Below, piece by piece: positions 6,641-58,409 of a stretch of 64,000 nt of DNA. Origin of the DNA: an uncultured bacterium. Lineage in GTDB: Bacteria > Oederibacteriota > PGYV01 > CAWJRG01. The notes beneath the pieces were generated by a model. That model made no database searches. It had not been told where the DNA came from and saw only the letters and a program-made list of their open reading frames with translations. How positions within the stretch are numbered: position 1 is the first letter of the stretch; each line of letters opens with the position of its first letter. The DNA is taken from NCBI GenBank assembly GCA_963845185.1, contig CAWJRG010000005.1:128001-192000 (forward strand), in the 5' to 3' direction. The position numbers and the translations under genes were made by a program.

Positions 6641-6685
6641 ACTCTCACCTCCTTTCATACTTTTTTAATTTCATTTTCTAATAAC

Positions 6686-6714
6686 ATTATATACTATTTT
6701 AGTATTTTTGTCAA
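6686..6714 (-). promoter_or_regulatory. Sigma70 promoter of pilA
   Basis: Exact TTGACA-N17-TATAAT on the minus strand. Confidence 0.85.
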
Positions 6715-6740
6715 GTATTTTTGTATTTTTTCTGCCAACT

Positions 6741-7943: not shown

Positions 7944-8012
7944 TTTTGATTTCTCCGCAATTATATTTGATGCTACATTCTGTCTTTCTAATTAACATTA
8001 ATCAACTAAAAT

Positions 8013-17255: not shown

Positions 17256-18549
17256 CTACAGATAATACACTGGCGCAAATAAAATTGTTGTTTTACCCCG
17301 TTTTTCAATGCCCCAATAATTTTTCGTTAAGATAACCCCTCTTTCTGGGTTGAATGCCTCTATATAATTACCAAAACTTCTTGTTATATCATGGTGCGAA
17401 AATGGAGAAAACTTGACTTCCACCGGTACTTCTTTGCCTTTGATTTTAATAAGAAAATCAACCTCAGAACCGGCTTTTGTCCTCCAAAAATTTACAGGGT
17501 TTAATCCTCCCGAAAGTTCTTTAAGCCTTATTAAAACCGTATTTTCCGCCAGTGCCCCGGCATCGGTTCTCTTGTCCGGCAGCCGCATATCTTCTATTAA
17601 CGAATTCCTGAAGCCGTTATCAGTGAAATATATTTTGGGATTCTTGGAAAGTTCCTTCATTTTATTGACAAAAAACGGTTTTACCTCCTGGATAACGAAG
17701 GTTTCTTCGAGTATATTGAGATTTTTCTTGAGATTGCGGTAATTCAACCCTGACAAAGCCGCAATATTATTGTAGTTGATGATACCGCTCGACTGGGCTG
17801 CCAGGCGCACGGCAAGCGACAAAATTTCGTCCTCTGTAACCATTTCCAGGAAGCCTTTTATGTCTTTTAAGATATAATTTGTTTGGATGTCGGCCAGTAT
17901 TTTTTCTCTGGCCCGGGCCGGCCAGCGTGACAGCCGGGTACCCTCCCCATACCGCATAATCATTAAAATGTTTTATCATATCGTCAAAATAAGCGTCATT
18001 GCCGCCGGCAAATCCCGTTGCTTTACCGTCAAAAATAAAGCCGCGTATATCCCCTGATTTTTTTGAATATATTTTTTCCATTCGAATGTCTTTAGCCCTC
18101 AGGTATTCTCCAAAACTAAAAGGATAAAGATAGAATGTAAGTATCCTGCCGACCATGTACTTCCCTATCTGTGCCCTTATATCAAGCGATGACGACCCCG
18201 TGATAAATATTTTTACGTTTTGAACTGTATCGTAAACAAGTTTTAATTTTTGTCCGCCGTCTTTTGCGTATTGGAATTCGTCTATAAGGAAATAAGTCCT
18301 GCTGTTATCCCCGAGCATAAAAGATGAGATAAAACCAGCCGGGTCAAAAGTAAATTGTTTTAATAATTTCCTGTCTTCAAAAGTTATGTTTACAATATTT
18401 TTCCTGTTTATTCCCTGTCCGGAAATAAGATACTCGGTCAGGAGCTTAAAAAGCACGGTCTTCCCTGCCTGTCTCGGTCCTACAACGGCAATATATTCAT
18501 TCCTGTCCAAAAAACCTTTTATTTGTTCCAAAATATCTCTTTTTATCAT
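17256..18549 (-). pseudogene. AAA+ ATPase with DUF4143 domain, split by a frameshift near 17915 (pseudogene or sequencing error)
   Basis: 5' part has GPRQAGKT, IDEFQ, TGSSS, GGYP; 3' part has NPKIYFTDNG, ENTV, FWRT...EVDF, PVEVK. The two parts are in different frames. Confidence 0.8.
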
Positions 18550-23095: not shown

Positions 23096-24001
23096 TTATT
23101 TAAACTTAAAACTCATCTGGATTTTTAATGTGTTGTCAAGCTGTTCAAACAGGTACGCCACGTCGAAATCCGTCGAAAATTCCTTGTTCCTGCCGAACTG
23201 AAAATGCCCTATCCCTATGCCGGTCATGTATTGCTTGGTTGACGCCACGTCAAGGGTCTGCGTGTACCCAACCCGCAAATCAATATATGTAAAAATATTT
23301 TTCTCCACCCCGATGTGCAGCATGTCAAGGTCGGTAATGTCAGATGATATAAGGAAAAACGGTATCCTGTAAGAAACTCCAAAGTCTGATGTCAGGGGCA
23401 CGCCCTCCTCGTAATCAGTGAACTGCGTATTCCATCTTACGTCTGAAAACGCGTTCTTTATCATGGCTCCCACCTGCACCTGCTCGTTTACGTGCCATAA
23501 CAATCCAAGGTCAAATCCTGCCCCGAAAGCGTTGCCCTGCATCCTGTCCGGCCCGCCTGTGGTGTCGCTTCCGAAACCTGCGGCCTGCAGTTTCAAATTC
23601 ACGCCTATATACATGTTCTTGACTACCCTTAGCAGCCAGTCGAGTTTTTCATCGTATGACAGGATAAAAGTTTTTTCATCTTCAAGGGCATCCCCCGACA
23701 CTATAAGGCCAAACCCCGCGGCCCTCTGGCCTTCAAAATTATATATGCCCGCTATGTAGTTATACGGCACAAGGCTCTTTACGTTGCCGTACATGAAGGC
23801 AACGTCGTTGTATTTTGAGGTTGCCATTCCGGCCGGGTTGTAAAATACGGAGTTCGCGTCATCGGCCACGGCAACAAACGCGTCGCCCAAAGCCGACGGC
23901 CTGGCTCCGCCGCCTATGTCCACAAAAGCAGACGGTTGCAGCCCAAATACACTGCCACATAACGCAAGGATTATTATCGTTAATACTGTTATTCTTTTCA
24001 T
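23096..24001 (-). CDS. PorV/UPF0164-like outer-membrane beta-barrel
   Basis: Signal peptide; GARPSALGDAFVAVADDANSVFYNPAG hatch motif; amphipathic strands; aromatic residue near the C-terminus. Confidence 0.82.
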   Translation of the reverse strand: MKRITVLTIIILALCGSVFGLQPSAFVDIGGGARPSALGDAFVAVADDANSVFYNPAGMATSKYNDVAFMYGNVKSLVPYNYIAGIYNFEGQRAAGFGLIVSGDALEDEKTFILSYDEKLDWLLRVVKNMYIGVNLKLQAAGFGSDTTGGPDRMQGNAFGAGFDLGLLWHVNEQVQVGAMIKNAFSDVRWNTQFTDYEEGVPLTSDFGVSYRIPFFLISSDITDLDMLHIGVEKNIFTYIDLRVGYTQTLDVASTKQYMTGIGIGHFQFGRNKEFSTDFDVAYLFEQLDNTLKIQMSFKFK

Positions 24002-24063: not shown

Positions 24064-27000
24064 TTATTTAATAAGCACTATTGAATAAAGAGCCTGTTTA
24101 GTCCCTGAAGCGTCTTCTATTTGAAGCTGCAGTATATACCTTCCGTTGACGCCGACTTTTCCATCCTTGTCTTTTCCGTCCCAGGTCAGCGTATTTATGA
24201 CGCCCGCCCCACGCTGCTGCCTGTCAACAAGCGTCCTTATAAGCTTGCCGGCCATGTTATATATTTTAATGGTTGTTATTATGCTGCTGCCTTCCTTGGA
24301 TTCAAGCACATAATTTATCGTGAGCCCTCCCCTGTATGGAGAAAACGGGTTTGGAAGCATTGTAACGTTTGCAAAGCCAAGCGGCTGCAGCGGAATAATC
24401 ACGGCGTACTGGCAGAGGCTGCCTATGCCTGATGTGATTTCATTGTTTGAAGTGCTGCTTCCTGTAACAGTCTGCCATTTAAGGTTTACCGTGTCCCAAG
24501 CGCCTATCTGCGCCGAGCTGGTATCATAACCGGAAGGCAAAGGCAGGGTCATTGTCACGGGGTTGGTGAACTTAAACCCGTTTGTCAGGTCATAAATATC
24601 TCCTATAACCATGCCGTTCTTTGTCATGGTCCTCTGGCTCGACGGCACTACTTTATTCAGCGTAATCCTGTCTATTGTGTTTGACGGGTCAGCGCAGCCT
24701 GCCGGAAGCACAAGCGAGAATCCCTGGTAATCACGCACGGTTTTGTCTGCAGCAGGCCACGACGGCGTGAGTTTCTGCCATACCAGCGCGGTCGTGCCGC
24801 TCGATTGCCCGAGCGCTGTAGCTATCACAGTCACCTGTCCGATATAATCAACCGTCGGCAAATAAACCCCTGTAGCATCTATTGTTCCGGCGGCTGACGG
24901 AGTCACGCTCCAGGCAAAAGTTACAGGTACCACGGCTCCGCTTCCGTCAACGTAAGTAGCTGAGAATTTATATGGCCCGGTAAGGTTTTCGTTGTAAATT
25001 ATGTCCGACGCCCCGGACGGCGCAGAGATTGTAATACCCCCGCCCTGCGGCTGTGCCATTGTAAAATTTGCCGTGGCCGCCCCTAAAGGAGTTACATCTG
25101 CATACGCCTGGGCCGGTGAAGACACAAAGTTATTTTTCATCGCTGTAACCACATAATTTCCCTCGTCTGCAGTTAATGAATATGTCCCGCCTGCCGCAGT
25201 TGTCGCGGTATACGCAGGGTAAGTCACGGACTGCGCGTATATGCTTATGGTTACACCGGATAGCGGGTTGCCGCTGCTTGTCACCATGCCTGATATGGTT
25301 CCCTGCTGCGCAGCAGTAACAGCTGTCATTACAAATCCCAGCGAATTAGGCGCGGTTGTTGTGGTATTAATAAGCTGATAACCAAAGGCTGTAAGGTTAA
25401 TATTATAGCCGCCTGCAGGTATTCCAGTTATAGTTACTCCTCCATTTGCGTCTGTTACAGCAGAAGCCGTATATCCAGTGGTTGTTGCGTCATTACCCTC
25501 AATATTAATGTTCGCTCCATGGAGTAAGGTCGAAGCAGTTCCGCTTACCAGGACATATAAAGAGGCACTTGTACTTGTTGTATTTGGGTAAAGTGTAAAA
25601 TTAACATTTGAAATTTGCTGCCCTCCTGCAATGGGGCTGAAAGTTACTCCCTGCGGGCCGCCTGTACCGCCGGTCATATACCCTTGTTTCACTGCATTAA
25701 CGACAAAATACCCCGGGCCTACGCTCAAAGAGTAATTGCCGTAAGCGTCTGTGTACGCGTTTATTGCACTACCCGACACAGACACTGCGCTCACAAGTAC
25801 GCCCTGCATTGCTGTGCTGCTGCTGTCCGTGACCTTTCCTGATATTCTGGTTTGCCGCAAGCTGCATGGTGAAATTTATTGTGCCCTGCGAGCCCCCTGC
25901 CAATGTCACGCTGGAAGACCCTGGCGATACAAAGCCCAGATCTGCTACGCTTGCAATCCATGTCCCGTCAGGCAATTTTAAAGTATAATATCCGTTGATA
26001 TCCGTCCAAACCGAATATGAATTTCCAGGATTCCCGCTTTGATATACCGTTACCTGCGCGCCGTATATGCCGTTGCCGGACGGGTTTGTCACGTTGCCTG
26101 AAAGAATATTCGGATTTTTTACAAGAATCATAGGCGCTGCCAGTGCGCTCAATGTATTGCCGAACGCTATATTTGCCGTTGTCGTGGCTGACGTATAACC
26201 GGAATCTGCCGCCTGTATATTCCACGCCCCTGAGCCGCTTAAATAAAGCACAAAAGACCCGTCGTTTGCCGTGTTTGCATGGAAAGGCGTCCCGCCGCCC
26301 TGCGACGCTGTCACTTGCGCGCCCTGCACAGGCTGGCTGGGCAAAGAATTGTCAAATACATACCCTGTCAGCGTATATGCGCATGGCGTAAGGTAAACAA
26401 TGCCAAGGTCTATAACGTTTCCTGGCACAATGGTTATCAGCCCTGAAAAAGTGTCGGGCTCATAGCCCTGTTTTGAAATAGTGCACTGATAATTGCCCGG
26501 GGGCAAATCGTATGAAATAAATCCTGAATTGTCTGTTATCATTGGGTAAATATCGACATTCCCGCTTCCCGTAAGCGCCTGCAGGCTCACTACTGCCTCA
26601 GGCACGGTAGTTAATGCGTTTGGCAGGGTATTTATGGTTTCAACAGTCAATTCCACGCTGGTCACGGTTATATCGTAATAAAAACCCTGTGCCAGGCTTT
26701 TTGCGCCCCTTCCCTGAGAATCCACTGCAATCACGTACCACGAGTACCACCTGTCGTTAAGCCCAATATCCGAAGGAATGGTTGTATAGCTGACAGATGA
26801 CGGCACTGTGACTTCCCATCTCGGCACCCTGCTTAATCCCCCAACTTCCTGGGAATCTGTCTCATTGCTTGACAAATATACCTGGTATTTGTTGGCGTTC
26901 GGGACTGTATCCCAGCTTAAATTGATGGACGGCTGGGTCGCGGCCGAGACTGTCACCCCGTCCATAGGCGATGTCAGGACAGGCGCGGGGCATGAAGCAG

Positions 27001-27745
27001 TAAGGTTTGCGCCGTTTACCGTGAACTGGGAAGCGCCTGCAAAGGCGCCTGATATAAGCGAAGGCGAGTCTGTATAATTATTTAATATATCCCATGAATA
27101 AGTGACTCCCTGGATTAAAGGTGGCGGCTGCATTTGATTATTTGGATTATAATAGCCTGAAGGGTCTGCAGTCGGGTAATTTATGTCTGTCTGGTTCGTG
27201 GTAACAAGCCAGATAGGGTCAGCAGTAATTGTAACATAGCTGCCGCTGTTGCCCGAAGTTGGGGCCTGTATGGATATAGGCACATCTGAAAGCAAGAGCG
27301 TATAAAACGGCACGCCGTTGCGGGCCTGCCACTGAAAATCCGGCGTCAGCGTGCTTATCTGCGAGCCGGTTGGCGGCTGTGTCATCACTGCCGCGACCGG
27401 GACCTCAACATAAAGCGAAAACTCGGATGAGTAGGCAGTAGTGCTATTTAGTGTTTCAGCAACTATGCAGTAATAAATGCCTCCTGTCATGCCGTATGTC
27501 GATGGCATGAACGAAACTTTGCCTGCTGCCGACTGGGGAATCGTTATGGTCGGGGACGTGAAAAGAGAATAAGATGTCCCGCAAATAAGCTCGCACTGGT
27601 TGGTTGGTTCGCCCTGCCATGTCACGGTTATTGTGTCCGATAATGCCTCGAGCGTCATCGGGAACGAGACAAGCTGCGGCTGCGCGTGGATAACCGCTGT
27701 TGCCGCGAGTATTGAAAAAACTGTTATTAAAAATATCTTTTTCAT
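24064..27745 (-). CDS. Large secreted protein with carboxypeptidase-regulatory-like repeats and a FlgD-Ig/T9SS-like CTD; +1 frameshift near 25845 (1226 aa if repaired)
   Basis: Track ORFs 25769-27745 and 24064-25860 join as ...MQLAANQ|ISGKVTD... if one A is removed. Repeated (I/L)SG.V....G.....GA units. C-terminus PNPFSP...IKIYNMAGKLIRTL...WDGKD...NGRY. Confidence 0.8.
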
Positions 27746-45077: not shown

Positions 45078-45105
45078 TTAGACAACTTTAAACCAAAAAA
45101 GTTCC
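45078..45105 (-). promoter_or_regulatory. ECF sigma-type promoter
   Basis: GGAACTT-N15-GTCTAA on the minus strand, upstream of GH8 45016. Confidence 0.72.
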
Positions 45106-45121
45106 AATAATCTTATTAACA

Positions 45122-45150
45122 ATTTTATTCAGTAAATACTGATTTGTCAA
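45122..45150 (-). promoter_or_regulatory. Sigma70 promoter with a palindrome in the spacer
   Basis: TTGACA-N17-TAAAAT; TCAGTA-N2-TACTGA at 45129-45142. Confidence 0.6.
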
Positions 45151-45374
45151 GGTGTTTTTGTACGATTAAATAATGCCTTTGCTGTGCAATGGCAAATATT
45201 GTTTTTTGGATAATATCCATCAATAACTGATGGGTTTACAATATGATTGCGTCCCAAATAGCAGCCGCTTCCCTGTTATATTGTCAATATATTTTAAAAA
45301 AATTTCGGCTTTGTCCGTATGCAGCACAAACAAAAAGGTTTATGTCCGGGCGATACATCAAGCCCGGCATAATA

Positions 45375-45412
45375 AAAAAAACAGGAGCGGATTAAAGTAC
45401 CGCTCCTGTTTT
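45375..45412 (-). terminator. Intrinsic terminator
   Basis: AAAACAGGAGCGG...CCGCTCCTGTTTT. Confidence 0.78.
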
Positions 45413-45436
45413 AAATCTCTTAAGTATTTTAAAAAA

Positions 45437-48400
45437 TTACTTTAATATAATAATCTTGTCTATCTTGGACCTTACCTTTACTCCGCCTTTTTCCGCAATT
45501 ACCACGTAGTAATATGAGCCTTCGCTGAGGTCTTTAAGGTTATCATCGCTGTCGTCGCATTGCAAAACACCGCTGCTTGCTACTAGCTGCGCTGCTTTTC
45601 CATCAAATGTATGCTGCTTTATCAGCCTGTAAGATGCTGTATATATCTTAAGCGTTATTTTCTCTACGTCGCTTGGCGTTATGTTAACCTTAATTTTCAA
45701 AGGCTGTATTACCGGATTAATTGGGTTCGGATAAGGCAAAGGCGGTCCTACTGTCACTCCTGTTGCCAGCGGTGTCGCCGTATATGTCGGTGTCGCTGTA
45801 ATCGTAGGTGTCTGTGTCATAGTCGCTGGCGAGCATGAGAATGTGTTGCTCGTTGCCGGCGCGCTTGTATCGGTCACTCCGTCAACCGCATCCGTGCCGC
45901 TTGCCGTATCGTTAAATGTTACAGTTGTGCCTGGCCCGGATGTCACTTGGTATACCCATGTAAATGACGCTTGTGCACCTGCGCCTATCGCAGTTGCAGC
46001 CGGCGCGCTTCCCTGCAGAGTAACTGACCCTGTGCTGCCTGCCGTTAATGCCGGCGCTGACGGCACCACGTTATTTGCTGTGTTTGTACCGTTATTTTTC
46101 ACCTGTATCACTACCGTTATAATCTGGCCTTGTCCGCCGCTTGAAGGCGATATCGTTATGTTGTTTATTACAAGGTTTATCGCTATGGTCGGCGTTACTG
46201 TCGGCGTATTTGTCGCTGTATTAACTGGCGTGTTCGTCGCTGTCGCGCATGTGAATGTGTTGCTGGATATTGATCCGGTTGTCAAAACCACCCCGTCAAC
46301 CGCGTCTGTGCCGCTTACTGTCCCGCTGAATGTTATATTGCTGCATATTACAACATTATACACCCATGTAAACGAGGTTTGTGAATTCCCGTTTATTGTC
46401 GTATTTGCAGGGATTGGCCCGCTTACCAGCGTGGCTGCTCCTCCGCCGGATTGCGACAATGCTGACGGTGCCACGTTATTAGCAGCGTTACCGCCTGTGT
46501 TTACAACCAGCATAACTACAGTTATGTTCTGGCCGCTCGCAGCGCTTGCCGGTGATATTGTCAAACTTGTTATAAAGTTAATAGCTATTGTCGGTGTTGC
46601 TGTCGGCGTGTTTGTCGGCGTGCTTGTCACTGTCGCTGTCGCGCACGTGAATGTGTTGCTCGATGATGAGCCGCTGGTCATGCCGACTCCGTCCACAGCG
46701 TCGGTACCGCTTACAGTCCCGCTGAATGTTATATTGCCGCATGTTATTACAGTATATACCCATGTGAAAGATGTTTGCGCACCACTTCCGCCTAATGTCG
46801 CGCTTGCAGGGCTTGGCCCGCTTACCAGCGTAGTTGCTCCTGCGCCTGATTGCGACAACACTGACGGCGCTACGTTATCCGCTGTGTTTGCGTCTGTATT
46901 TTGCACCTGCATCACAACTGTAATATTCTGTCCAACAGCAACGCTTGCCGGCGATATCGTTATGCTGTTTATTACAAGGTTTATATCTATCGTCGGCGTT
47001 ACTGTCGGCGTGTCTGTCTTTGTAGAACCAAGCGGCACCGGTGTATCTGTTATGGTAATTGTATAAGTCGGCGTCCATGTTGGTGTCACTGTCAATGTCC
47101 GCGTTTCTGTCAATGTTGATGTTTCTGTTACACTAGGCGTCCCTGTAGGTGTAGCTGTCAATGTCCGTGTATCTGTTGATGTCGGCGTTGATGTTTCTGT
47201 TGACGTTGGCGTCCTCGTCGGCGTATTAGTACCTGTTGCGGTCAGTGTCGGTGTATTTGTCGCTGTATTTGCCAGCGTGCTTGTCGCTGAAACCACAGGC
47301 GTGAATGTCACAGTAGGAACGATGCAGTATATCTCAAAGTTGTCTATCCATAGTGTTACGCTTGCCTGCGGCGCTGCTGTCGTCTGGAATTGTATATCTT
47401 TTGCGTTTTGCAATACTGTGTTCAATGGCACTGCTGTTCCCCATCCTGCCTGTTTGAAAGACGTGAATGGTATTGTTATAAGCGTCCATCCTGCCGGCGC
47501 TGTAAACGTTGCTGCGTAACTATCGTACCCGTCAAGCTCGGTACCGCTTGAGTTCGTGTACGGTATCTTTATTTCATATGTCGCTCCGTCTCCCTTTGTT
47601 TCGAACCTTATACCTACCGCTCCGCTTATATCGGTTACCTGATATGTCGGTGACCCTGCTTTTCCGTTTAACTGCATTCCCATTCCTATGTATCCGCCTG
47701 CTGCCGCTACAGACCCTGTCATAAGAGCCGCGCAGTCCGCTCCTCCGCTAAACCCGGGCGAACTCATTGCAAACGCAGTCCCTGTCACTGGCCATTCTGT
47801 CGATGCTGCGTCATCAAATGTGTACCAGTAACCGCCCCATGCGTCCTGATTGCTGCAACTTGCCATTGTATCAACCTGGCATACGGGTTGAGGCGTATTT
47901 GTTGGTGTAGGCCCTGTAGTAGGCGTATCCGTCGCTGTTGCCCCGCAGCCGTATATAGTAAAGTTGTCTATCCATAAATCTACGCTCGCCTGCGGCGATG
48001 CTACTGTCTGGAATTGTACCTCTTTCGCGTTTTGTAATACTGTAAGCAACGCTACCGCTGTTCCCCATCCTGCCTGTTTCAATGATGAGAACGGCACTGT
48101 TACCAAAGTCCAGCCTGCCGGCGCTGTAAACGTTGCTGCGTAACTATCGTATCCGTCAAGCTCGGTACCGCTTGAGTTCGTGTACGGTATTTTTATTTCA
48201 TATGTCCCTCCGTCTCCCTTTGTATAGAAGCTTATCCCTATTGCTCCGCTCAAGTCTGTTACCTGATATGTCGGGGACCCTGCGTTCGCGTTCAGCTGCA
48301 TCCCCATTCCTATCTGGCCGCCTGCATCAACTGTACCAGTTATTTGCGCCGCGCAGTCCGCGCCTCCGTCATATCCGCCCGTACTCATTACAAACGCACC

Positions 48401-51400
48401 TGCTCCTGATGGCCATACCGTCGATCCAGCGTCGTTATACGTGTACCAGTAACCGCCCCATGCGTCCTGGTTACTGCAATTTACCATTTTATCCGTCTGG
48501 CACAGGGAGGTTGGCACTATTGACGTGTATGTCGCTGTCGGCACGAATACAGTTGATGTAAATGTCGCTGTATTGACCGGCGTGTCTGTATATGTAATAG
48601 GCGCCGTATTTGTAAGCGTCGCTGTATCGGACGGTGTATCTGTCTTTGTATTCACCGGCGTAGCCGTATACGTAAATGTCGATGTATTGGTTGACGTTAC
48701 AGTTCTGGAAGGAGTTCCTGTGTATGTTGGCGTAATCGTAGCTGATATTATCACTACAGTATAAGTCATAGTTATTGTGTATGTCGGCGTATTTGTTCCT
48801 GTATATGTAGCTGTAATTGTCCTTGTTCCTGTCGGTGTTGCTGTAATTGATGGTGTAGTTGTCTGGGTGAAAGACGACGTTGCCACGGGCGTGTTTGTCG
48901 ATGTATTCACCGGCGTGTTTGTCCACGTCAAAGTAACTGTGTATGTTGGCGTGTTTGTCGCTGTATTTGTCCTTGTTACTGTCGGCGATACTGTATATGT
49001 TGGAGTAATTGTTGCTGATACTATTATTGTTGTAAATGTCATTGTTATTGTGTATGTAGGTGTCGGCGTATTTGTCGGCGTATTTGTCAGCGTATTTGTC
49101 GGCGTATTTGTGCCTGTGTTTGTCCTTGTCACCGTAAGCGAAGGCGTCCCTGTGTTTGTAAATGTAGGCGCAGTCGTGTTTGTTCCTGTCGCTGTTAAAG
49201 TTGCAGTGTTCTGTTGCGTGCTTGTCCACGTAAGAGTTACTGTGTATGTAGGAGTATTTGTTGCCGTATTTGTCCTCGTTGCTGTTGATGACGGCGTGTT
49301 TGTCGGCGATATGGTGTATGTAGGAGTAATCGTCGCTGAAATTATCACTACTGTAAAAGTCATTGTTATTGTGTATGTCGGAGTCTGCGTGCCTGTCGGT
49401 GTATTTGTCGGTGTATTTGTGCCTGTATTTGTCCTTGTCGCCGTAAGCGAAGGCGTCCCCGTCGACGTTAAAGTTGCAGTGTTCTGTAATGTATTTGTCC
49501 ACGTTAAAGTAACTGTATATGTCGGCGTGTTTGTCGCTGTGTTTGTCCTTGTTCCTGTAGACGTCGGCGTGCTTGTCCCTGTCGATGTTAAAGTCACTGT
49601 GTTCTGAGGTGTGCTTGTCCACGTAAGAGTTACTGTATATGTAGGAGTATTTGTTGCCGTATTTGTCCTCGTTCCCGTAAATGTCGGTGTGTTTGTTACT
49701 GTAATTGTCGGCGATACCGTGTATGTAGGAGTAATAGTAGCTGATATTATCACTACTGTAAAAGTCATCGTTATCGTGTATGTTGGCGTCTGCGTGCCTG
49801 TCGGTGAGTTTGTCGGCGTATTTGTGCCTGTGTTTGTCCTTGTAGCCGTAAACGTAGGCGTACCTGTAGGTGTGCCCGTAGGTGTACTTGTCGGCGTATC
49901 TGAGACTGTATTCACCGGTGTGTTTGTCAATGTCAGGGTATATGTATATGTATACGTAAATGTCCTTGTAAAAGTGAACGAAGGAGTAATTGATGGGGTG
50001 TTTGTAGCTGTATTCACCGGCGTGTTTGTCCACGTCAAAGTTACTGTATATGTGTATGTAGACGTATATGTAGGCGTATTTGTTCCTGTATTTGTCCTTG
50101 TTGCTGTAAGCGTTGGCGTATTTGTAACCGTATTTGCCGGCGTGTTTGTCCACGTCAGAGTTACTGTATATGTATATGTCGGCGTATCTGTAGGCGTATT
50201 TGTCCCTGTATTTGTCCTTGTCGCTGTACTTGACATCGATGGTGATTGCGTAGGCGTGTTTGTTAATGTATTCGCCGGCGTGTTTGTCCACGTCAAAGTT
50301 ACTGTATATGTATATGTAAACGTATCTGTAGGCGTATTTATCCCTGTGTTTGTCCTTGTTGCTGTAAGCGTAGACGTATTTGTAGGTGTATTTGTCGAAG
50401 TATATGTCGCTGTATTTACCGGCGTATTTGTGGCTGTATTCACCGGTGTATTTGTCCACGTCAAAGTTAATGTATATGTAGACGTGCGTGTACTTGTTAT
50501 CGTAGGCGTAACCGTCACTGATGGCGTACTTGTCACTGTAGATGTTAAAGTTATTGTGTTCTGTGGCGTGTTTGTCCATGTTAGAGTTACTGTATATGTA
50601 GACGTATTTGTACCTGTATTTGTCCTTGTCGCTGTAGACGTAGGTGTGGCCGTGCTTGTATATGTAGGCGTATTTGTACCTGTGTTTGTCCTTGTCGCCG
50701 TAAACGTAGACGTAGGCGTTGACGTATATGTGCTCGTACTGGGTAACGGCGTATTTGTTATTGTCGGTGAAGGTGTTGGAGTTATTGTCATTGTAGGTAT
50801 TGCAGGCGGCGGCGTCAGTGTCGGCGTTACTGTCTTCGTATTTATCGGCGTAGGCGTCCATCCCAGGCTTGGATAGAATCCTACATCGTCTATTGATAAA
50901 TCTACTGCATGCCCGTAATCATACGTCTGCCAGTTTATCTGCAGCAGATGCTGCAATACCAGCGTCAAACTTACTTTTGTACCCCACCCTGTTTCCTGCG
51001 TCAGGTCTGAAAATGGTATCTGCATCTGCGTCCACGTGGTCGGCGGTATAAATGTATATTTGAAGTCGTTATACCCTGTGTTTGTTACTGAGTTCGGCAT
51101 AAACCTCAGGCTGTACTGGTGCGTCCCGTCTCCTTTTATCGCCATTACAAATCCGCTGAATGCGCTTACATCCCTTGTCGTGGATGTTACCCTGTCTACG
51201 TTTGTCCCTAATCCAACGCACGGATAATATATAGTCCCTGTACATGCAGAATTGTTGCAACTGGTCGAACAGTATGTCGTGTATACATATCCCGTTATCC
51301 TGGCGCAATATGCCGTACCATACGGGCTGCCTGGCCAACCTGGCGCTGTCATTACAAACGTTGTCTGTGCCTTCGGCCACACTGTCGTTGTATCATTCGC

Positions 51401-52729
51401 GCATCCTGTCGTACCATAATACGAGTACCATGCGCCTCCCCAGTTATTTATTGCATCCCCGTCTTCAAATGTATCCAGCAATGCCGCCGACGGCGTCTGC
51501 GTTATTGTCGGCGTAAATGTCGGCGTTCCTCCCTGTAAATTTAATAAGTTCCAATAATTCCCTGTCATCAACAGAAGCGATAATATCTGCCATGAGTCGT
51601 TATAATATGAATTCGGCGCAAAACTCCCTGTCTCTGTGCAGTAATTATTTAACGTTGTCTGGTAACCATTATAATTCCTCATAAACGAACATCCTATCGG
51701 GCCGGTGAAGCATGCGTTGTGATTGGTTCCTGTCACGGCCCCGCTTGATACTACATAGCCGTCCTCTATTGCCGTGGCTGCTATTGTGTTAAAGTGTACG
51801 GATATATACTGCAGCTCTGTCGCTGAGTCTACTCCATTCCATGTATAATATAACTCGAACCTCCATGGCACCCTGCATGAATTATATAAATAATCCAGCC
51901 CATTGCATGAGCCGTTTCCTCCGCTGTTGCACGGGTCTCCGTTCTCAACTGCTCCGTTTGCCAGGCATGAATCTCCTATTAGCCCGTTTGCCGTGCTACG
52001 GCATCCTCCTCCTGCCCATGTCGTCATTGCTGTTAACACAGCGTTCCATTTTGCAGAATTTGTCGTGTCTATGTTTGCCCATTCTGCGTAATATGCCGGA
52101 TCCCAGTATGACGGATAATACCATGTGTTCCATTGGTCCCCCGGATTTACTGCCGACGTGCTTGAATCTATGTCGTGTGACAATACATACCCTTCCTCTG
52201 TCATTGCCGTCGCTCTTATGTTTGTATCATCTACTCCAGGTGTCGGGCCAAACTGCCGCGCCGCCATCAAAACTGAAAACGCTATGTCTTCGTCCGCGTC
52301 TGTCGCTGAATCTGCAGGGCTTGCTTTATTGCTTCCATCTGAATTCAGGTTCCATACCATTAGAGTGTTTGAGTCCAGATGCAACTGCATATAACTCCAT
52401 AAATTGTTGTATAATGCCGCGTCATTAAAATATACCGCCATCAACATACCGTATCCCATTCCTTCTGATACCGTGTCATTGCTCTGGTCCGGCCTCTCTA
52501 CTCTATCGTATCCGGATGCCGCCACAACGTAATGCGTCTTCCACGTGTTGTACAGATTCAGCAGGTTTGAGTTGCTGTAACTTGTCGAGTATATGCCGTA
52601 TGTATATGCCTTGCTTAATGGAAATGGAAAGTTGGCGTTTGTCTGTGTGATTATGTTTGCGCCAAATACCCCGCTGCTCAGAATGATTATAAAAAGGATC
52701 GCAATTGCCGTTATTTTTCTTATTTTCAT
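45437..52729 (-). CDS. Multidomain GH8 (2430 aa): GH8, 3 CBM11-like domains, very long Thr-rich linker, 3 Ig-like domains, T9SS-like CTD
   Basis: First ~640 aa nearly identical to 39317-45016; same catalytic motifs and same CTD class. Confidence 0.9.
48510..50860 (-). repeat. Intragenic (Thr-X)n degenerate tandem repeats, about 780 aa
   Basis: Recurring [25 protein letters not shown] and [20 protein letters not shown] units. Confidence 0.9.
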
Positions 52730-52790
52730 AACTTTGCCTCCCGCTTTCTATGTTTTTATATATATCGATATTCCTATTTCTTCCTTCTTT

Positions 52791-52818
52791 TTAGACAACT
52801 TCTCCCCAAAAAAGTTCC
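52791..52818 (-). promoter_or_regulatory. ECF sigma-type promoter
   Basis: GGAACTT-N15-GTCTAA upstream of GH8 52729. The boxes are conserved while the spacer differs from the 45078 copy. Confidence 0.72.
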
Positions 52819-53184
52819 GTTTATTTTCTTGTATATAAATATATATTATTTTTGGCTTCTTGTCAAGGTATTTTATTATCTTGTATATGCTATAAATAAG
52901 CAGAAAAAGGCTGTTTTTCTTTGTATAATAACATTATCAACAATTTAAATAAATTTACCTATAAGATAGTTAATGAGAATTAAAATCCGGAATAATTTTA
53001 CCCTTATTCGCGCTCACAAACAGATTTTCGATTCATATTCCCTTTTTTGTCTTCCAGCATCTTTCCTGTCTTTCGTATCACTTTTAAATCACAAATTTTA
53101 AATTGTCAATGCAATCTCAGAAACTGTTTTTTGCTGGGTAAAATAGGATAATTTTCGGCGTGATAAATGCATTATAAAAAAAAT

Positions 53185-54158
53185 TTATCTTTTTACTACT
53201 ATATAACCTTTAACAACCCTGCTCCCTATCTGCATATATACAAAATATACATCATTTGCAACTGCTGCATTACTGTCATTTCTTCCGTACCAATAAGCTT
53301 CATAATATCCCGGGTCTCATCCTGGTCCATCAATACACTTACTGGCCTCATTGCTTTGTCATATATAATCACTTTAACCCTTGCATTTTCCTCAACCTTA
53401 ACCCTGATTATTGCCGCATCCATTTTCGACGGATTAATAACATTGTTTCCCACTATTGCTTTTTGCTGCTCAAGCAAACAACCATACGGGCAATTTTTGC
53501 CCTTGTCATTGTTATCGGCGGCTGTCACTTTTGAATCTGTTGACGAAACACTGCCTTGCATCCGGTTTACCGCATAAGCCTGTTGCGCAGGTTTATTAAC
53601 TGCCTGGCTGTTAACTGCAATATTATCACCGCCGCTGTTATTATTTATCGCTGCTGCCTGGACTTCCTTTTTTTCCGCAACAACTTTATTGTTTATTTCC
53701 TGCTTAATTTCCTGTTTTGCCGGTTCTTTCATCATTGCCTGCACAACAGGTTTTATTTTTTTGTTGTTAACAGCCGTAACTGATTTATGCTCCACCTTCT
53801 TTTCAACAAAATTAATCTTTTCATTTATATTATTTAAAGGCATCTGCATAATGAATACTGCGATTATTAGAATTACTGCAAAACTGACCGCGTAATTAAA
53901 TACAGGGAAAATGCTTAAGCCGGGTTTTTCTATTCCTGTAATATTGGCCATTATTTTGCCCTCTATATAATAGGGCACATCCACTGGCAAAGAATTCATT
54001 AGTTTCCTGTATTTCTGCATATCGGAGTAGTAATTTCGGCATTCGGAACATTCAGCTTTATGCTTATTTAATACTCCGTAATCTTCAATTTCTGCTCCGT
54101 TTTCCAGGTCTTTCATTATCATCTCTCGGTACTTTTTGCATTCCTTCCTGACTTTCAT
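53185..54158 (-). CDS. Zinc-binding anti-sigma factor (ZAS) with TM helix and FlgD-Ig/T9SS-like CTD; -1 frameshift near 53310 (324 aa if repaired)
   Basis: C...HKAECSEC (HxxxCxxC); TM FNYAVSFAVILIIAVFI; NVINP...VIIYDKAMRPV. The alternative frame continues PGYYEAYWYGRNDSNAAVANDVYFVYMQIGSRVVKGYIVVKR to TAA at 53185-53187. Confidence 0.8.
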
Positions 54159-54189
54159 TTAATTTCACCTTCCTTATTCTTACAAATTA

Positions 54190-54217
54190 TATGACAAACC
54201 AAACTGAAAAAAGTTTC
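54190..54217 (-). promoter_or_regulatory. ECF sigma-type promoter before the anti-sigma gene
   Basis: GAAACTT-N15-GTCATA between the sigma and anti-sigma genes. Confidence 0.65.
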
Positions 54218-54225
54218 GCTATATT

Positions 54226-54801
54226 TTAAAAAATTTCATCTTTTTTTAACATATCCCTAAGATTATCTCTGGCCCTGAATAATTTGCTTTTTACAGCTGA
54301 TACTGATAATTTCATTATTTTTGAGATATCCTCGTAAGAAAGAGCATTTATATCCCGCATTATTAAAATGTTTTTCTGCTCGCTTGTAAGTTCGCTTATT
54401 CTTTTATATATCATCTTTCTCTTTTCGTTGGTGATTAAAATCGAATCGGGCTTTTTCTCTTCCTTGTCTTTTATTTCTAACTGTTTATTTATCTCTTCAT
54501 CGCCAGGGTAAATGTCGTCCATTATAGGCGCGCGTTGCCTTTGAAGCTGTTTTATTTTATTTTTGCATACATTTACAGTTATCCGGTAAATCCATGTGCT
54601 GATTTTGGATTCGCCCCTGAAACTTTTTATATTGTTATATACATTTAAGAATATTTCCTGGGTTGCGTCCTCTGCGTCCTGCTGATTTCTAAGGTATGTA
54701 TAAGAGTGATTATATACCACCCTCTTATAAGTTTGGATTATTTCCCTGAAAGCATTCGTGTCTCCTTTTTTAATTTTTTTAATTATTTCTTTCTCATCCA
54801 T
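54226..54801 (-). CDS. ECF RNA polymerase sigma factor
   Basis: DAEDATQEIFL, SFRGESKISTWIYRITVN, LSYEDIS, AVKSKLFRAR. Confidence 0.95.
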   Translation of the reverse strand: MDEKEIIKKIKKGDTNAFREIIQTYKRVVYNHSYTYLRNQQDAEDATQEIFLNVYNNIKSFRGESKISTWIYRITVNVCKNKIKQLQRQRAPIMDDIYPGDEEINKQLEIKDKEEKKPDSILITNEKRKMIYKRISELTSEQKNILIMRDINALSYEDISKIMKLSVSAVKSKLFRARDNLRDMLKKDEIF

Positions 54802-54879: not shown

Positions 54880-55806
54880 TTAAAATTCCGCCTTGATTGT
54901 AATCCTATGTTCATTATCCGATATAAAAAACGGCTTATAAGCGTAATCAAGCGTAAAATACTGCCAGTTAATTCCTAAGCCTACGGCCAAATTTCCTTCA
55001 TCCCCGCCCAGAACATAACCATACCTGAATGTAAGAAAGTTTAAATATTTTACTTCCAACCCCAGGGCCGTTTCCGCGCTTTCAGCCTCATTAAGATAAA
55101 ATCTTTCTTCGATATAAAGTGAAGCACTGTATTGATCCCTGTTGCTGTATATCAGCATGCCGTAACCGCCCCTTGCCAAAATCGGTAAAAGTATCTTATC
55201 CTGCCAGTACTCGCTTGTTATCCCTATATTTTCAAGCAAAAGTCCCAGGTTGTAATTCCTTTCCTGATTTTTGTATAATAAACCTATATTACAGCTTGCT
55301 CCTAAAGTTTGATTAGTATAAAGCATGCTGCGCAGTAATTTAAGATTTATCCCGGCGGATATATTGCCTGTCAGGTCATTCGCGTACATTGCGCCTAAGA
55401 CCATATCTGAATTATCAATGTTTCCAATGGGATTGCCAAATTGATCCGTCTTTGCCAGCTGGTCGTTCGCGTCATACATGAATGAAAACCCGATTGCGCC
55501 GTAATTTTCCTGCGGCTGGAGATACATTATCTGCTCGTAATGCGTGCTGAAAACAGAAACATAATTGGAAAAAATTGCGTATTTGTTTTTTATACCAGCG
55601 AGCGCAGCCGGGTCGACATCAGCTGCCCCAGGCTCCGCGTAATAAGGCGTATATATCCCTCCCAATGCCGTTTCCCTTGCAGGAATATCCACAAGTAAAA
55701 ATGACGATGCTGTTTCCCCTGCGGCATATAACTTATAATACATTGCTAAAGAAAAAAAAATAAAAAAGCAAAATATATATATGTTTTTCCCGTTTACCTT
55801 TTGCAT
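54880..55806 (-). CDS. PorV/UPF0164-like outer-membrane barrel
   Basis: SFLLVDIPARETALGG...DPAAL, LDYAY, HRITIKAEF. Confidence 0.78.
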   Translation of the reverse strand: MQKVNGKNIYIFCFFIFFSLAMYYKLYAAGETASSFLLVDIPARETALGGIYTPYYAEPGAADVDPAALAGIKNKYAIFSNYVSVFSTHYEQIMYLQPQENYGAIGFSFMYDANDQLAKTDQFGNPIGNIDNSDMVLGAMYANDLTGNISAGINLKLLRSMLYTNQTLGASCNIGLLYKNQERNYNLGLLLENIGITSEYWQDKILLPILARGGYGMLIYSNRDQYSASLYIEERFYLNEAESAETALGLEVKYLNFLTFRYGYVLGGDEGNLAVGLGINWQYFTLDYAYKPFFISDNEHRITIKAEF

Positions 55807-55815: not shown

Positions 55816-56814
55816 TTATGCAGAGTCTCTTATAATCAAAGTGGGTTCAAATGTAATTACCCTGCTAGTGTCGCTGGATTTTTTTTCAATGATATTTAAT
55901 AGCATATCCAACGCCTGCATTCCCATTTCCGCTATAGGCTGTTTTATTGTAGTTAAAGCCGGTGTTGTAAGGGTTGCCATGTATAAATCATCGAAACCCA
56001 CAAGCGACATGTCATCGGGTATCCTGATATTATGCGCCTTGGCTTCGGCCATTATACCCATAGCGCAAACATCTCCTGCAGCAGAAAAAACCGCATCAAT
56101 TTTCCTTCCGTCATTAACAATCTTTCGCATTACTTCCTTGCCTTCCTCAAAAGAATAATGAATAATTCTAATTATATTATCCTCATTTACCTGCATGCCG
56201 TTATCACGAAGCGCTTTTTCATATCCTGCCTGCCTCTCGTAGGCATTGGCAGCGACTTTTTGGCCTAAAACTATCGCTATATTTTTACGGCCTTTCTTAA
56301 TAAGATAATCTGTCGCGATATATCCGCCCTTTTCATTATCAACTTTAACGCAAGGCGCTCCTTCAGTCACCTGCTCGATAAGCACAACAGGCATTTCCTG
56401 ATTTTTAAACTCATCAATAAGATGTTTGTCAAAAGTGGCAGTCATGCTTAAGACCCCGTCTACCCTTCTCTCATAGAATATCTTTTTCAAAATTTCCCTT
56501 TCATTTTCAGCCGAACCGCGAGTGGAATACAGGCTCAAATTATATTTTGTATCGCTAAGCCGCTGTTCCACGCCTTTTACAAGTTCAAGCGAAAAGACAG
56601 ATGCAAAAGAGGTTGCTACCAGGCATATATTTTCCGTCTTGCCCATAACCAGGCTTCTTCCTATATAATTAGGATGATAGTTCATTTCCTGTATGGCTTT
56701 TAGAACTTTTTCCCTGGTTGCTTCGCTTATCTTTTTATTGTTATTTATTACCATGGAAACAGTGGCAGCCGTAACCCCTACTTTGCTCGCTATGTCTTTG
56801 ATTGTTACCCTCAT
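55816..56814 (-). CDS. LacI family transcriptional regulator
   Basis: TIKDIASKVGVTAATVSMVIN HTH, YHPN, IPDDMSLVGFDD, LTTIKQP. Confidence 0.96.
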   Translation of the reverse strand: MRVTIKDIASKVGVTAATVSMVINNNKKISEATREKVLKAIQEMNYHPNYIGRSLVMGKTENICLVATSFASVFSLELVKGVEQRLSDTKYNLSLYSTRGSAENEREILKKIFYERRVDGVLSMTATFDKHLIDEFKNQEMPVVLIEQVTEGAPCVKVDNEKGGYIATDYLIKKGRKNIAIVLGQKVAANAYERQAGYEKALRDNGMQVNEDNIIRIIHYSFEEGKEVMRKIVNDGRKIDAVFSAAGDVCAMGIMAEAKAHNIRIPDDMSLVGFDDLYMATLTTPALTTIKQPIAEMGMQALDMLLNIIEKKSSDTSRVITFEPTLIIRDSA

Positions 56815-56930: not shown

Positions 56931-58340
56931 CTATTTTTGCTGTTGCTGTTGTCCGGCTGCAGGCGTCTGTTGCTGCTGTTGCCCTGCTGCAGGAACTTGT
57001 TGTTGCTGTTCCTGTCCCTGTTGCACCCCTAAATCCGCGCCCGATTTAATACGGTCAATAAAATTCTTGAGCTGCAGATTTGTCGGATCGCATTCCAGTG
57101 CTTTGTTATATGCCTGCATGGCAAGGTCATTTTTCCCGGTATTTAAAAAACACGCGCCAATGCCTATATAAGCCGATGAGTAATTCCTGTTTCTTTTCAA
57201 GCACTCCTTGAATTGATCCATGGCCTCAGAATACTTTCTATCAGAGAGAAACGTGTATCCTTTTTTGTAATATTCTTTTGCCAGGGCAACATCCTCTTGC
57301 TGAGTTCCTTGAAAAATTCCGAACATCATTCCCGAGACTGATATTCTGTGTGCCAGGCCCAAATCGCCGTAAGGTGTTAATGAGTAATCTACATCAAAGC
57401 TCATATCCTTGATTGCAGTCAGTTTATATCCCACCCCGCCGGTAAAACCGTTCAGTCCGCCAAGGTCGTAGCCGAATTTATACCCACCCCTTAAGGCTAC
57501 CGTATGGTATTTGTTCAATACCCAGTATTTTTCAACTCCGACATTCAGCCTTGCAAGCTCTTCCTCCGGATAATAAATCACGTCAATATCCGCGGCTGCA
57601 TTGTTGTCTAATAATTTAAAATATCCTTCGTCTGTAAACGGCAACATAATATTTTCAAGCGCAAATCTGTAACCAATGCCAAACCTTATGGTAAGCGGAA
57701 GATCAGGCCTGTTGGTAGACACCCCGAAATTTTGCACGCTTATACCCAAAGAATAATTTTCATATTTCGGCTTGTAATAGGCATCCAGGCTTACGGCAAA
57801 CCCGCCTCCCTGGTCCGTGTATATCTGGTCGTTTAATATGCTTGTGCTTATTCCAAGTGATAAATCCGACAAAAATGAGTTATCACCCAAAAAATCCGAC
57901 AACTTTTTTGCAAAAGCTAAATCAATGTCCATATCCGACGCATTTGCTTTTTCGTTGGTCGCTACATAATTTCCCTTAGAGTCTTCGCTTGTCACGTCGA
58001 CACTGCCGTATAAAAAAATTCCGGATAACTCCACTGTTCCAATACCTGTAATAGGCAAGGCATAAGCTCCGTACTCATCGTTTACATCCAGCAGCCATGC
58101 CGTGTGCATAAGGCAAAAATTATTCTGCGTGAGCTGGGTCAGTCCTGCTGCGTTCCAGTATATGGCGTTTACGTCATCCGCAATTCCTGTAAATGCTTCG
58201 CCCATGCCGCACTGTCTCGCGCCTTCAGGAATTTTTGTGAAATTCTCGCTTGTTACTCCTGCGCCTTCAGGGAAAATTGAGGAGGTAAAGAAAAAAGATA
58301 TTAACAACGTTGGTAAAATAAATAAAATAATTTTTTTCAT
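56931..58340 (-). CDS. PorV/UPF0164-like barrel fused to C-terminal TPRs and a Gln-rich tail
   Basis: GARQCGMGEAFTGIADDVNAIYWNAAGL; barrel end DYS.TPYGDLG..HRIS; TPR YYKKG...AYIGIG...A..AYNKAL..DP; tail QQQQ-PAAG repeats. Confidence 0.82.
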   Translation of the reverse strand: MKKIILFILPTLLISFFFTSSIFPEGAGVTSENFTKIPEGARQCGMGEAFTGIADDVNAIYWNAAGLTQLTQNNFCLMHTAWLLDVNDEYGAYALPITGIGTVELSGIFLYGSVDVTSEDSKGNYVATNEKANASDMDIDLAFAKKLSDFLGDNSFLSDLSLGISTSILNDQIYTDQGGGFAVSLDAYYKPKYENYSLGISVQNFGVSTNRPDLPLTIRFGIGYRFALENIMLPFTDEGYFKLLDNNAAADIDVIYYPEEELARLNVGVEKYWVLNKYHTVALRGGYKFGYDLGGLNGFTGGVGYKLTAIKDMSFDVDYSLTPYGDLGLAHRISVSGMMFGIFQGTQQEDVALAKEYYKKGYTFLSDRKYSEAMDQFKECLKRNRNYSSAYIGIGACFLNTGKNDLAMQAYNKALECDPTNLQLKNFIDRIKSGADLGVQQGQEQQQQVPAAGQQQQQTPAAGQQQQQK

Positions 58341-58380
58341 ATTTTTCAATCTCCCTTCGTTAATAAATATTCTTATTTAA

Positions 58381-58409
58381 ATTTTATCAAATTAATCGAT
58401 TAAAATCAA
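58381..58409 (-). promoter_or_regulatory. Promoter with a perfect palindromic operator
   Basis: TTGATT-N17-TAAAAT containing TTAATCGATTAA at 58392-58403. Confidence 0.6.

Follow-up and report, generated by a model that had tools for sequence, protein, structure and literature searches.

We analysed a 64,000-nucleotide stretch of an uncultured Oederibacteriota genome (contig CAWJRG010000005.1, positions 128,001 to 192,000; hereafter the window) and found a minus-strand gene cassette that encodes an extracytoplasmic function (ECF) sigma factor, an anti-sigma factor, a PorV-like outer-membrane barrel and two giant glycoside hydrolases of family 8 (GH8). The anti-sigma factor ends in a tail of the C-terminal domain (CTD) type that serves as secretion tag in type IX secretion systems (T9SS). 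We suggest that the sigma and anti-sigma factors form a switch with this secretion-tag domain as its sensor, coupled to a tag-dependent export or anchoring route, a reading to which we give about an even chance. The argument is carried by the domain architecture of the anti-sigma factor, the homology of its tail, the gene order, the joint duplication of three of the genes, and a promoter motif together with its distribution over the genome.

Scans with Pfam and NCBIfam models gave the order, from upstream to downstream, of a barrel fused to tetratricopeptide (TPR) repeats, a LacI-family regulator, a second barrel (hereafter PorV1), the sigma factor, the anti-sigma factor and the GH8 giants (Table 1), with a GH9 gene downstream of both giants. 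The operon genes are tightly packed with short gaps, and 455 bases separate the anti-sigma gene from the first giant. With regions 2 and 4 only and about 190 residues the sigma factor belongs to the ECF class. The anti-sigma factor, encoded directly after it, has the motif of the class I zinc-associated anti-sigma (zf-HC2) proteins along with an upstream cysteine (C7 and H33-x3-C37-x2-C40), from which zinc binding is predicted; further on come a single hydrophobic helix (near residue 81) and a stretch of low complexity. Its match to zf-HC2 is weak (E 0.13, 12.8 bits, under the cut-off of 22.2). The first-pass annotation had named an ECF sigma followed by a zinc anti-sigma with one membrane helix, and a PorV-like barrel directly upstream of the sigma gene; the Pfam scores and the H-x3-C-x2-C motif bear out the former, and the NF033709 score of PorV1 the latter. 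Both window barrels belong to the PorV/PorQ family by their NF033709 scores, and PorV1 also by the 14-strand model of its orthologue. Neither reaches the PorV equivalog model (41.8 bits for PorV1 against 250), and the PorQ equivalog model gave 83.4 bits against 220.

In the assembled sequence the anti-sigma gene is split over two frames. The open reading frame (ORF) of the first, 53226-54158 on the minus strand, encodes 310 residues; it opens the immunoglobulin (Ig)-like domain (...VKVIIYDKAMRPVSVLMDQDETR) and then runs into unrelated residues. From 53316 the second frame reads DPGYYEAYWYGRNDSNAAVANDVYFVYMQIGSRVVKGYIVVKR and stops at 53185-53187, and the change of frame falls within GAGACCCGGGAT (53310-53316). 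The only close database relative, P0002 (322 residues, 53% identity), is intact and reads ...DETPGYYEFDWYGKND... / ...DETPGYYE... across the site, hence the window is one base short in the C run of ACCCGGG. The domain is otherwise whole: scored separately against a hidden Markov model (HMM) of orthologous tails, the two halves span positions 1-55 and 55-97 end to end. Together with the intact P0002, these scores (72.6 and 60.9 bits) confirm that a one-nucleotide frameshift near 53310 hides the C-terminal domain, as had been proposed. Scanned separately, the halves gave nothing in Pfam, the pieces being too short, and NCBIfam matched only the first half, with 12.6 bits, to the part of a T9SS-dependent protease model that covers the tail. 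We rejected a programmed -1 frameshift as unlikely: all 20 orthologues are encoded in a single frame, and the phase of the CCCGGGA heptamer is that of the downstream frame and not of the upstream one. Public contigs from three runs cover only 52903-53144, 54214-54383 and 54544-54694 of this stretch; none spans the frame change, and no RNA run was listed among the matches. A frame-break signature showed no enrichment at CCCGGG (7 of 1442 sites, as compared with 142 of 40000 random positions) in a test that is blind to short downstream frames such as that of the anti-sigma gene. Three more pairs of overlapping ORFs resemble frame-broken genes, at window positions 17767-17963 (ATPase-like) and 25769-25860 (a tag-bearing surface protein) and at C10:230883-231063 (a cargo gene of the second module described below), and frame breaks seem common in this assembly.

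Twenty intact orthologues were aligned over their full length, and zf-HC2 and FlgD_ig matches among them were counted at E <= 0.01. In the alignment C7, H30, C34 and C37 (P0002 numbering) are invariant and a membrane helix is shared; conservation is poor in the linker and high over the last ~95 residues. The zf-HC2 model matches 16 of the 20 and FlgD_ig (PF13860) matches all of them (best E 2.3e-6; P0002 itself has 22.8 bits, under the cut-off of 27), while models of T9SS type match rarely: CHU_C 7/20, TIGR04183 3/20 and Por_Secre_tail (PF18962) 1/20. In the AlphaFold model of P0002, helices at 5-53 and a membrane helix at 81-102 are followed by disorder from 107 to 220 and a seven-strand beta-sandwich at 222-322 (pLDDT 95-98). 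The linker thus measures ~110-120 residues, with 110 and 122 in the two members measured. Foldseek searches with the tail returned generic Ig-like folds, including PorZ (5m11), FlgD (3osv, 7eh9) and the RgpB CTD (7pq4), at E 2e-4 to 2e-3, and the modelled fold alone is non-discriminating.

Run against the whole genome, the tail HMM matched 62 ORFs; the best 51 domain matches all end within 26 residues of the ORF C-terminus, in proteins of up to 4197 residues. Alignment by hhalign of the anti-sigma tail with 33 of the genome's terminal tails gave a probability of 99.65% (E 4.9e-25, 90 columns). By these comparisons the tail is homologous to the domains that end about 50 large and presumably secreted proteins encoded in the genome, and we take it for a probable member of the FlgD_ig/T9SS-type CTD superfamily. 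The FlgD-Ig/T9SS-like CTD of the first-pass annotation is thereby supported, and its expected Ig-like folding agrees with the confident beta-sandwich of P0002. The anti-sigma factor is not a T9SS cargo in the usual sense, as a cytoplasmic N-domain and a membrane anchor stand in place of the signal peptide. The first-pass annotation had also reported two CTD-bearing GH8 genes next in line. Two GH8 giants with related C-termini are indeed present, and a conserved C-terminus (...KIYT.a.RLI...G.YYYV...KIIILK) is found in 12 full-length orthologues, but by sequence comparison these C-termini form a divergent, more distant subtype of the tail domain.

In a quick tree of 76 tails, built on only 93 columns, a single subclade of 42 rows (support 85, unstarred) takes in all 27 anti-sigma tails along with all seven cargo tails encoded beside paralogous modules; this grouping is suggestive, no more. 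We further searched a library of 1.8 billion proteins with the tail domain, and among the 149 best representatives at least 60 are proteins of 283-372 residues with a zinc motif and a terminal tail. Others, such as P0014, P0017 and P0024, are large proteins (up to 5312 residues) with 5-15 internal copies of the Ig-like core; the Ig-like module thus serves both as terminal tag and as repeat unit. In the protein atlas the only leads were below threshold (0.82-0.86): Bacteroidota and Ignavibacteriota clusters that carry CHU_C, zf-HC2 or Por_Secre_tail.

The cassette is well conserved among close relatives. An uninterrupted anti-sigma homologue occurs in 23/23 genomes of the same order, and in other orders of the phylum we found three weak matches in 17 genomes. 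Twenty loci from same-order genomes were compared ORF by ORF with the window proteins, the gene order being judged as far as the contigs reach. Sigma factor, anti-sigma factor and PorV1 adjoin in all 20, with PorV1 directly upstream of the sigma gene, so intact homologues with zinc motif, membrane helix and CTD, syntenic with an ECF sigma and PorV-like genes, for which the first-pass annotation had proposed a search, do exist. The LacI gene is present in 18 (absent from L025; the L028 contig is too short). A giant related to the window GH8 proteins follows the anti-sigma gene in all 18 loci where the contig continues; its best match is to the GH8 domain in 16 and to the non-catalytic part in L014 and L021, with a GH8 gene next in L021. 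The TPR-fused barrel, with periplasmic TPR repeats and a glutamine-rich tail, is kept as a fusion in 19 of the 20, the contig of the last being too short. In Flavobacterium a separate TPR lipoprotein, SprE, belongs to the translocon (PMC10994853).

A second, intact module of the same composition lies on contig C10 (219000-235697): sigma factor, anti-sigma factor with CTD, PorV-like barrel, and then CTD-bearing cargo including a GH8 protein. The closest paralogue of PorV1 in the genome is the barrel of this module (112.8 bits; next best 61.4), that of the window sigma is its sigma factor (138.2 bits; next best 96.2), and the two anti-sigma factors are likewise each other's closest paralogues. 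Each of the three is the closest paralogue of its counterpart, which shows that the three genes were duplicated together. Among relatives, the loci of the second type (L041-L045) have sigma factor, tailed anti-sigma factor and PorV-like barrel in 5/5 cases, with tag-bearing cargo next in 4/5. A further locus, L047, comes from another taxonomic order of the phylum and has a sigma factor, an anti-sigma factor with tail and a giant protein; no barrel was found in the 16 kb retrieved. Neither was a PorV-like neighbour found for the zinc-motif anti-sigma factors without tail in L046 and L048. In total a PorV-like barrel adjoins the anti-sigma gene in 26/27 loci with a tail-bearing anti-sigma factor and in 0/2 without tail.

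The first-pass annotation had proposed modelling the CTD together with the PorV-like barrel. We ran this prediction on the orthologous pair of one relative, with PorV1 residues 29-307 and anti-sigma tail residues 222-322, alignments of 20 rows each, three runs and three controls. The complex reached an ipSAE of 0.87 in each of the three runs against 0.00 for the best control, with contacts agreeing to at least 97% and partner pLDDT of at least 90, which supports binding of the tail to the barrel. It should be noted that the calibration of the tool, in which 116/157 solved complexes and 2/215 mismatched pairs reached the mark, holds only roughly since we used our own alignments. The modelled PorV1 orthologue has 14 strands, and its contacts (83-87, 111-124, 161-166, 198-204, 240, 267-270 and 292-296) involve all seven loops opposite both termini. 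From the usual topology of outer-membrane barrels these loops would be the outward face. Binding of the anti-sigma tail to the neighbouring PorV-family barrel is a prediction in silico only. In Flavobacterium, cargo tags bind extracellular PorV loops that protrude into the SprA cavity, and substrates enter this cavity from its periplasmic end (PMC10994853). A tail tethered on a linker of ~110-120 residues could in principle reach such a loop site.

The motif GGAAC-N17-GTCTAA occurs twice in the window, against 0.03 expected, each time 61 bases before the start codon of a GH8 giant. The giants stem from a recent tandem duplication: their first 40 residues are identical and the DNA from the motif onward is nearly so, and upstream of the motif the two share only the -35 box of a sigma-70-like promoter. 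A palindrome downstream of the promoter of the first giant, ATATCGATAT, was considered as LacI operator and rejected, being not conserved before the second. Over the whole genome the strict motif is found 20 times against ~1.7 expected, and each of the 20 sites is followed, 5-274 bases downstream, by an ORF of at least 100 residues. The ORFs behind them have, by eye, mostly signal-peptide- or lipoprotein-like starts, and they include the GH8 gene of the C10 module, the neighbour of that gene and one PorV-like gene. We suggest that the motif marks a candidate ECF regulon of the secretome with at least 20 genes. Slightly varied in its -10 element, the motif also stands, by pattern, before the sigma gene in 5/7 loci with second-type modules (L041, L042, L045, L047 and C10) and a cargo gene in 5/7 (L041, L042, L044, L045 and C10). 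An autoregulated promoter common to a sigma factor and a neighbouring target is the usual signature of an ECF sigma motif. Since it stands before the sigma gene of the paralogous module as well, we tie the motif to this sigma family. Examples among the 20 sites are C5:334883-334910, C5:434763-434790, C5:603602-603629, C6:83959-83986 and C9:213623-213650, and several of the sites stand before paralogous lipoproteins and a GH9-like gene (C5:735794-735821).

The operon itself has a sigma-70-like promoter candidate with a palindrome in its spacer. Sigma-70-like sites as a class are at chance level in the region (38 found against 34.7 expected). In several relatives a similar promoter with a CG-centred palindrome was seen by eye upstream of the orthologous gene, e.g. 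TTAACGTTAA in L019. The window palindrome, TTAATCGATTAA, may be the operator of the operon's own LacI-family repressor.

For the export machinery, the SprA model gave four collinear partial matches (69.2, 55.8, 43.4 and 29.3 bits), each under the cut-off of 200, in a single frame of 2148 residues that encodes a protein of 2145, and this distant SprA-like protein was matched in 41/41 genomes of the phylum sample. A tag-bearing protein of 1136 residues follows its gene. The Pfam family SprA_N had no match in the genome, and its control was silent too. The PorV/PorQ family model matched 40 times in the genome, 29 of these over the cut-off, and many PorV-like barrels lie directly beside a tag-bearing gene, e.g. 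at window positions 23096-24001 (barrel) and 24064-27745, and also at C5:271598-274315, C10:690167-692865 and C5:793312-801776. This looks like private pairs of barrel and cargo on a large scale, without a PorU sortase.

Our preferred reading runs as follows. The zinc-motif domain of the anti-sigma factor would lie in the cytoplasm and hold the sigma factor there, the protein would cross the inner membrane once, and a disordered linker of ~110-120 residues or more would present the C-terminal Ig-like domain. This tail would dock on the adjacent barrel PorV1, on the loop face that PorV uses for cargo tags in type IX secretion, and sigma activity would therefore be tied to the state of tag-dependent export or anchoring. 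Either a working carrier and translocon would capture the tail and inactivate the anti-sigma factor, or cargo and tail would compete for the barrel. The freed sigma factor would then transcribe from GGAAC-N17-GTCTAA promoters, including those of both GH8 giants. Here we infer the direction of the signal, the inactivation of the anti-sigma factor, and which of the nine ECF-like sigma factors of the genome reads the motif. The tail may, as the first-pass annotation had it, act as a decoy substrate, with cleavage of the anti-sigma factor following. A sigma-70-type promoter, controlled by the LacI-family repressor, seems to drive the operon itself, and expression of the GH8 giants would then depend on a sugar signal as well as on a competent route of export. 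Further, we speculate that the anti-sigma factor might be an envelope-spanning, tethered pseudo-substrate whose tail enters the SprA-like translocon on the periplasmic side and is caught by the outward loops of its private PorV-type carrier, so that energy-driven extraction of the carrier pulls the linker and frees the sigma factor. We hold this version to be quite unlikely; if true, secretion competence would be read out mechanically, by a checkpoint like that of FlgM but made from a membrane anti-sigma factor and a sorting tag, and used by a whole candidate phylum to time giant cellulolytic surface enzymes.

Several observations speak against a switch of this kind. The window copy of the anti-sigma gene is itself frameshifted, and if this is real half its tail is missing. 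The tail HMM does not match the C-termini of the GH8 giants, and by hhalign these reach only 89% with the anti-sigma tail as compared with 97.4% with the cargo tails; the GH8 tails being of a different subtype, the anti-sigma tail does not mimic the neighbouring cargo in the window cassette. The domain is also a general Ig-like module, and 58 of the best 149 library matches are large proteins with at least three internal copies. As PorV-tag complexes have already been solved, the score of the predicted complex may mirror likeness to these and not specific binding. Invariant residues are not enriched in the interface (7 of 44 in PorV1, where the interface comprises 45 of 279 residues, and 6 of 13 in the tail, where it comprises 36 of 101), and the predicted outward loop site is hard to reach for a protein tethered in the inner membrane. 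On the side of the machinery, a PorU body was not found, 50 of the 51 matches to the PorU model being to its tail region (position >=956) and none over the cut-off; GldM had no match in the genome, with a control that was silent too; and the GldK matches are weak, generic and of a kind that also arises in unrelated control genomes. A canonical T9SS is hence not evident from the models searched (SprA, SprA_N, PorU, GldM and GldK; GldL and GldN were not searched for). As to the promoters, the motif is found neither upstream of the window sigma gene nor of its operon and the genome has nine ECF-like sigma factors, so that the assignment to the window sigma rests on the paralogue. Among the relatives' cassettes the motif precedes the GH8 gene only in L026 and L021 (similar by eye in L018), and most have TTGACA-N17-TAtAAT in this place. 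The ECF promoters that the first-pass annotation placed on the GH8 giants therefore stand in the window, where both genes have the motif, while most relatives show a sigma-70-like promoter.

The main rival is an arrangement like that of FecA and FecR, in which the tail would be a permanent dock to the barrel and the barrel, or the TPR-fused barrel, would sense an external cue such as polysaccharide or surface-bound GH8, with cargo tags uninvolved. It would account for a triad of barrel, sigma and anti-sigma that is conserved, co-duplicated and predicted to bind; that the anti-sigma factor of this cassette has its own barrel, and a tail of another subtype than the GH8 tail, fits a private sensor pair better than competition. 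PorZ is also among the fold matches of the tail, and the stable barrel-tag pairs PorQ-PorZ and PorV-PorU are known in P. gingivalis. We nevertheless think this explanation unlikely, as no ligand-binding feature of the barrel is known, the Pfam matches of the cassette proteins include neither a FecR domain nor a TonB-dependent transducer, and the barrel of the paralogous module sits between the anti-sigma factor and cargo of one tail subclass, which fits shared use. A weaker rival takes the protein for an ordinary anti-sigma factor with a generic periplasmic Ig-like sensor of an oligosaccharide or envelope component, with the barrels as neighbours only because they serve the GH8 cargo. Duplication of barrel, sigma and anti-sigma as a unit makes this improbable in our eyes, as do a barrel adjacent in 26 of 27 tail-bearing loci against none of two tail-less ones, the position of the domain at the extreme C-terminus with terminal cargo tails as its closest relatives, and a complex prediction that passes against its controls. 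Still, the fold is a generic beta-sandwich and many large proteins contain the domain in internal tandem copies; carbohydrate-sensing anti-sigma factors (RsgI) are known, and since the genome holds ~40 PorV-family matches the proximity of a barrel is by itself weak evidence.

A different possibility is that the gene is broken in this genome. If the base loss is real, a truncated anti-sigma factor could bind the sigma factor without sensing, or be degraded, leaving the switch locked off or constitutive. The frame change does stand in the assembled sequence, and the small part of the genome inspected holds three other apparent frame breaks. The same multiplicity of breaks in one assembly suggests consensus errors, both halves of the domain are otherwise undamaged (72.6 and 60.9 bits) and 20/20 orthologues are intact, so we regard a broken gene as doubtful, though a prospect to be taken seriously; it would bear on this copy only and not on the family.

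Our coupled switch resembles several described systems in part. FlgM with sigma-28, and ExsE of type III secretion, are transcription inhibitors that are themselves secretion substrates, so that expression waits for a working machine. The likeness is in logic only: these proteins are soluble, exported whole and unrelated in sequence, whereas here a membrane protein is concerned of which only the tail could be engaged. As in FecA-FecR-FecI, an outer-membrane barrel, an inner-membrane anti-sigma factor that crosses the periplasm and an ECF sigma factor are encoded together, but the cassette has no TonB-dependent transducer, signalling domain or FecR domain, and the contact would be between a secretion-tag domain and a PorV-type barrel. 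With SigI/RsgI of Clostridium thermocellum it shares a sigma/anti-sigma pair for polysaccharide-degrading enzymes and an outer domain borrowed from the module repertoire of these enzymes. There the modules are carbohydrate-binding and the envelope is Gram-positive; here the borrowed module is a sorting tag and the sigma factor is of ECF and not SigI type, and no RsgI family match appeared in the family scans of the cassette proteins.

Of the described systems PorA of P. gingivalis comes nearest: this small CTD protein binds PorV and is required for PorXY-SigP signalling (PMC7712824). There, as would be the case here, a CTD protein on PorV reports the state of the secretion route to an ECF sigma of secretion-related genes, and PorA differs in being a free exported surface protein that acts on SigP via the two-component pair PorY/PorX (PMC7712824). 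In our cassette the tag is fused to a membrane anti-sigma factor, a dedicated barrel gene adjoins, and there is no two-component step. Likewise, the 14-strand PorV-family barrel and the Ig-like C-terminal tag recall the PorV carrier and its type A cargo, and the loop face carries the predicted contacts just as it does those of the solved complexes (PMC10994853). Here, however, the "cargo" is anchored in the inner membrane and lacks a cleavable signal peptide, the broad PorV/PorQ model is the only one that the barrel passes, PorU and GldM were not found by their models in the genome, and ~40 PorV-family matches occur, many beside tag-bearing genes. We found no description of an anti-sigma factor with a type IX-type tag (CTD, FlgD_ig, Por_Secre_tail or CHU_C) in full-text literature, a search outside which most subscription journals fall. 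Term searches of the text of the Goldbacteria single-cell paper (PMC7031533) returned nothing on GH8, sigma factors, T9SS or PorV.

The module suggests a direct wiring of expression to export, by a sigma inhibitor with an export tag and its own carrier barrel, conserved across an order of uncultured cellulose degraders. To our knowledge, and apart from flagella and injectisomes, little is understood of the way in which Gram-negative bacteria adjust the expression of very large secreted enzymes to the capacity of their outer-membrane export route. The module may also explain the dozens of PorV-like barrels beside tag-bearing genes in genomes outside Bacteroidota, and the promoter motif, as a candidate regulon of at least 20 genes, should be useful for annotating these genomes.

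Table 1. Coordinates of the cassette, its putative regulatory sites and related genes. Positions are those of the window unless a contig or locus is named.
Feature	Position	Strand	Remarks
Sigma-70-like promoter candidate of the operon, TTGATT-17-TAAAAT	58381-58409	-	9/12 matches, TG before second hexamer
Palindrome TTAATCGATTAA in spacer of operon promoter	58392-58403	-	exact, once in window
PorV/PorQ-family outer-membrane barrel with C-terminal TPR repeats and Q-rich tail	56931-58349	-	first gene of operon; NF033709 129.1 bits (cut-off 90); Pfam TPR_1, UPF0164
LacI-family transcription regulator	55816-56814	-	Pfam LacI, Peripla_BP_1, Peripla_BP_3, each over cut-off
PorV/PorQ-family barrel PorV1, predicted docking partner of anti-sigma tail	54880-55806	-	NF033709 111.1 bits (cut-off 90)
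ECF (group IV) sigma factor, 191 residues	54226-54801	-	Sigma70_r2 64 bits, Sigma70_r4_2 53.9 bits, both over cut-offs; TIGR02937 93.2 (cut-off 42.9)
Anti-sigma gene, both frames together	53185-54158	-	ORF reading and HMM of orthologous tails
Anti-sigma first frame: zinc-motif N-domain, membrane helix, low-complexity linker, first half of Ig-like domain	53310-54158	-	72.6 bits on HMM positions 1-55
Site of one-base frame change, ACCCGGG	53310-53316	-	intact homologue with one more C
Second half of C-terminal domain, other frame, including stop codon	53185-53316	-	60.9 bits on HMM positions 55-97
Sigma-70-like promoter candidate before GH8 giant 1, TTGACA-17-TATATT	52838-52866	-	11/12 matches
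ECF-type motif GGAAC-N17-GTCTAA before GH8 giant 1	52791-52818	-	
GH8 giant 1, 2430 residues	45437-52729	-	signal peptide, GH8, CBM11/CIA30-like modules, divergent C-terminal sorting-type domain
Sigma-70-like promoter before GH8 giant 2	45122-45150	-	in tandem with ECF-type motif
ECF-type motif GGAAC-N17-GTCTAA before GH8 giant 2	45078-45105	-	
GH8 giant 2, 1899 residues	39317-45016	-	recent duplicate of giant 1
Second-module sigma factor	C10:235116-235697		
Second-module anti-sigma factor, 329 residues	C10:234130-235119		intact, same architecture as the family of the window copy
Second-module PorV-like barrel	C10:233121-234026		
Distant SprA-like protein, 2145 residues	C9:181574-188011 (locus L049:3575-10012)		

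Apart from the cassette, the window holds a type IV pilus gene set at positions 2-9083, with secretin-like, PilM/N/O-like, PilC-like and PilT-like genes and two pilin-like genes (FTLIELMIV), as judged from N- and C-terminal sequences only.

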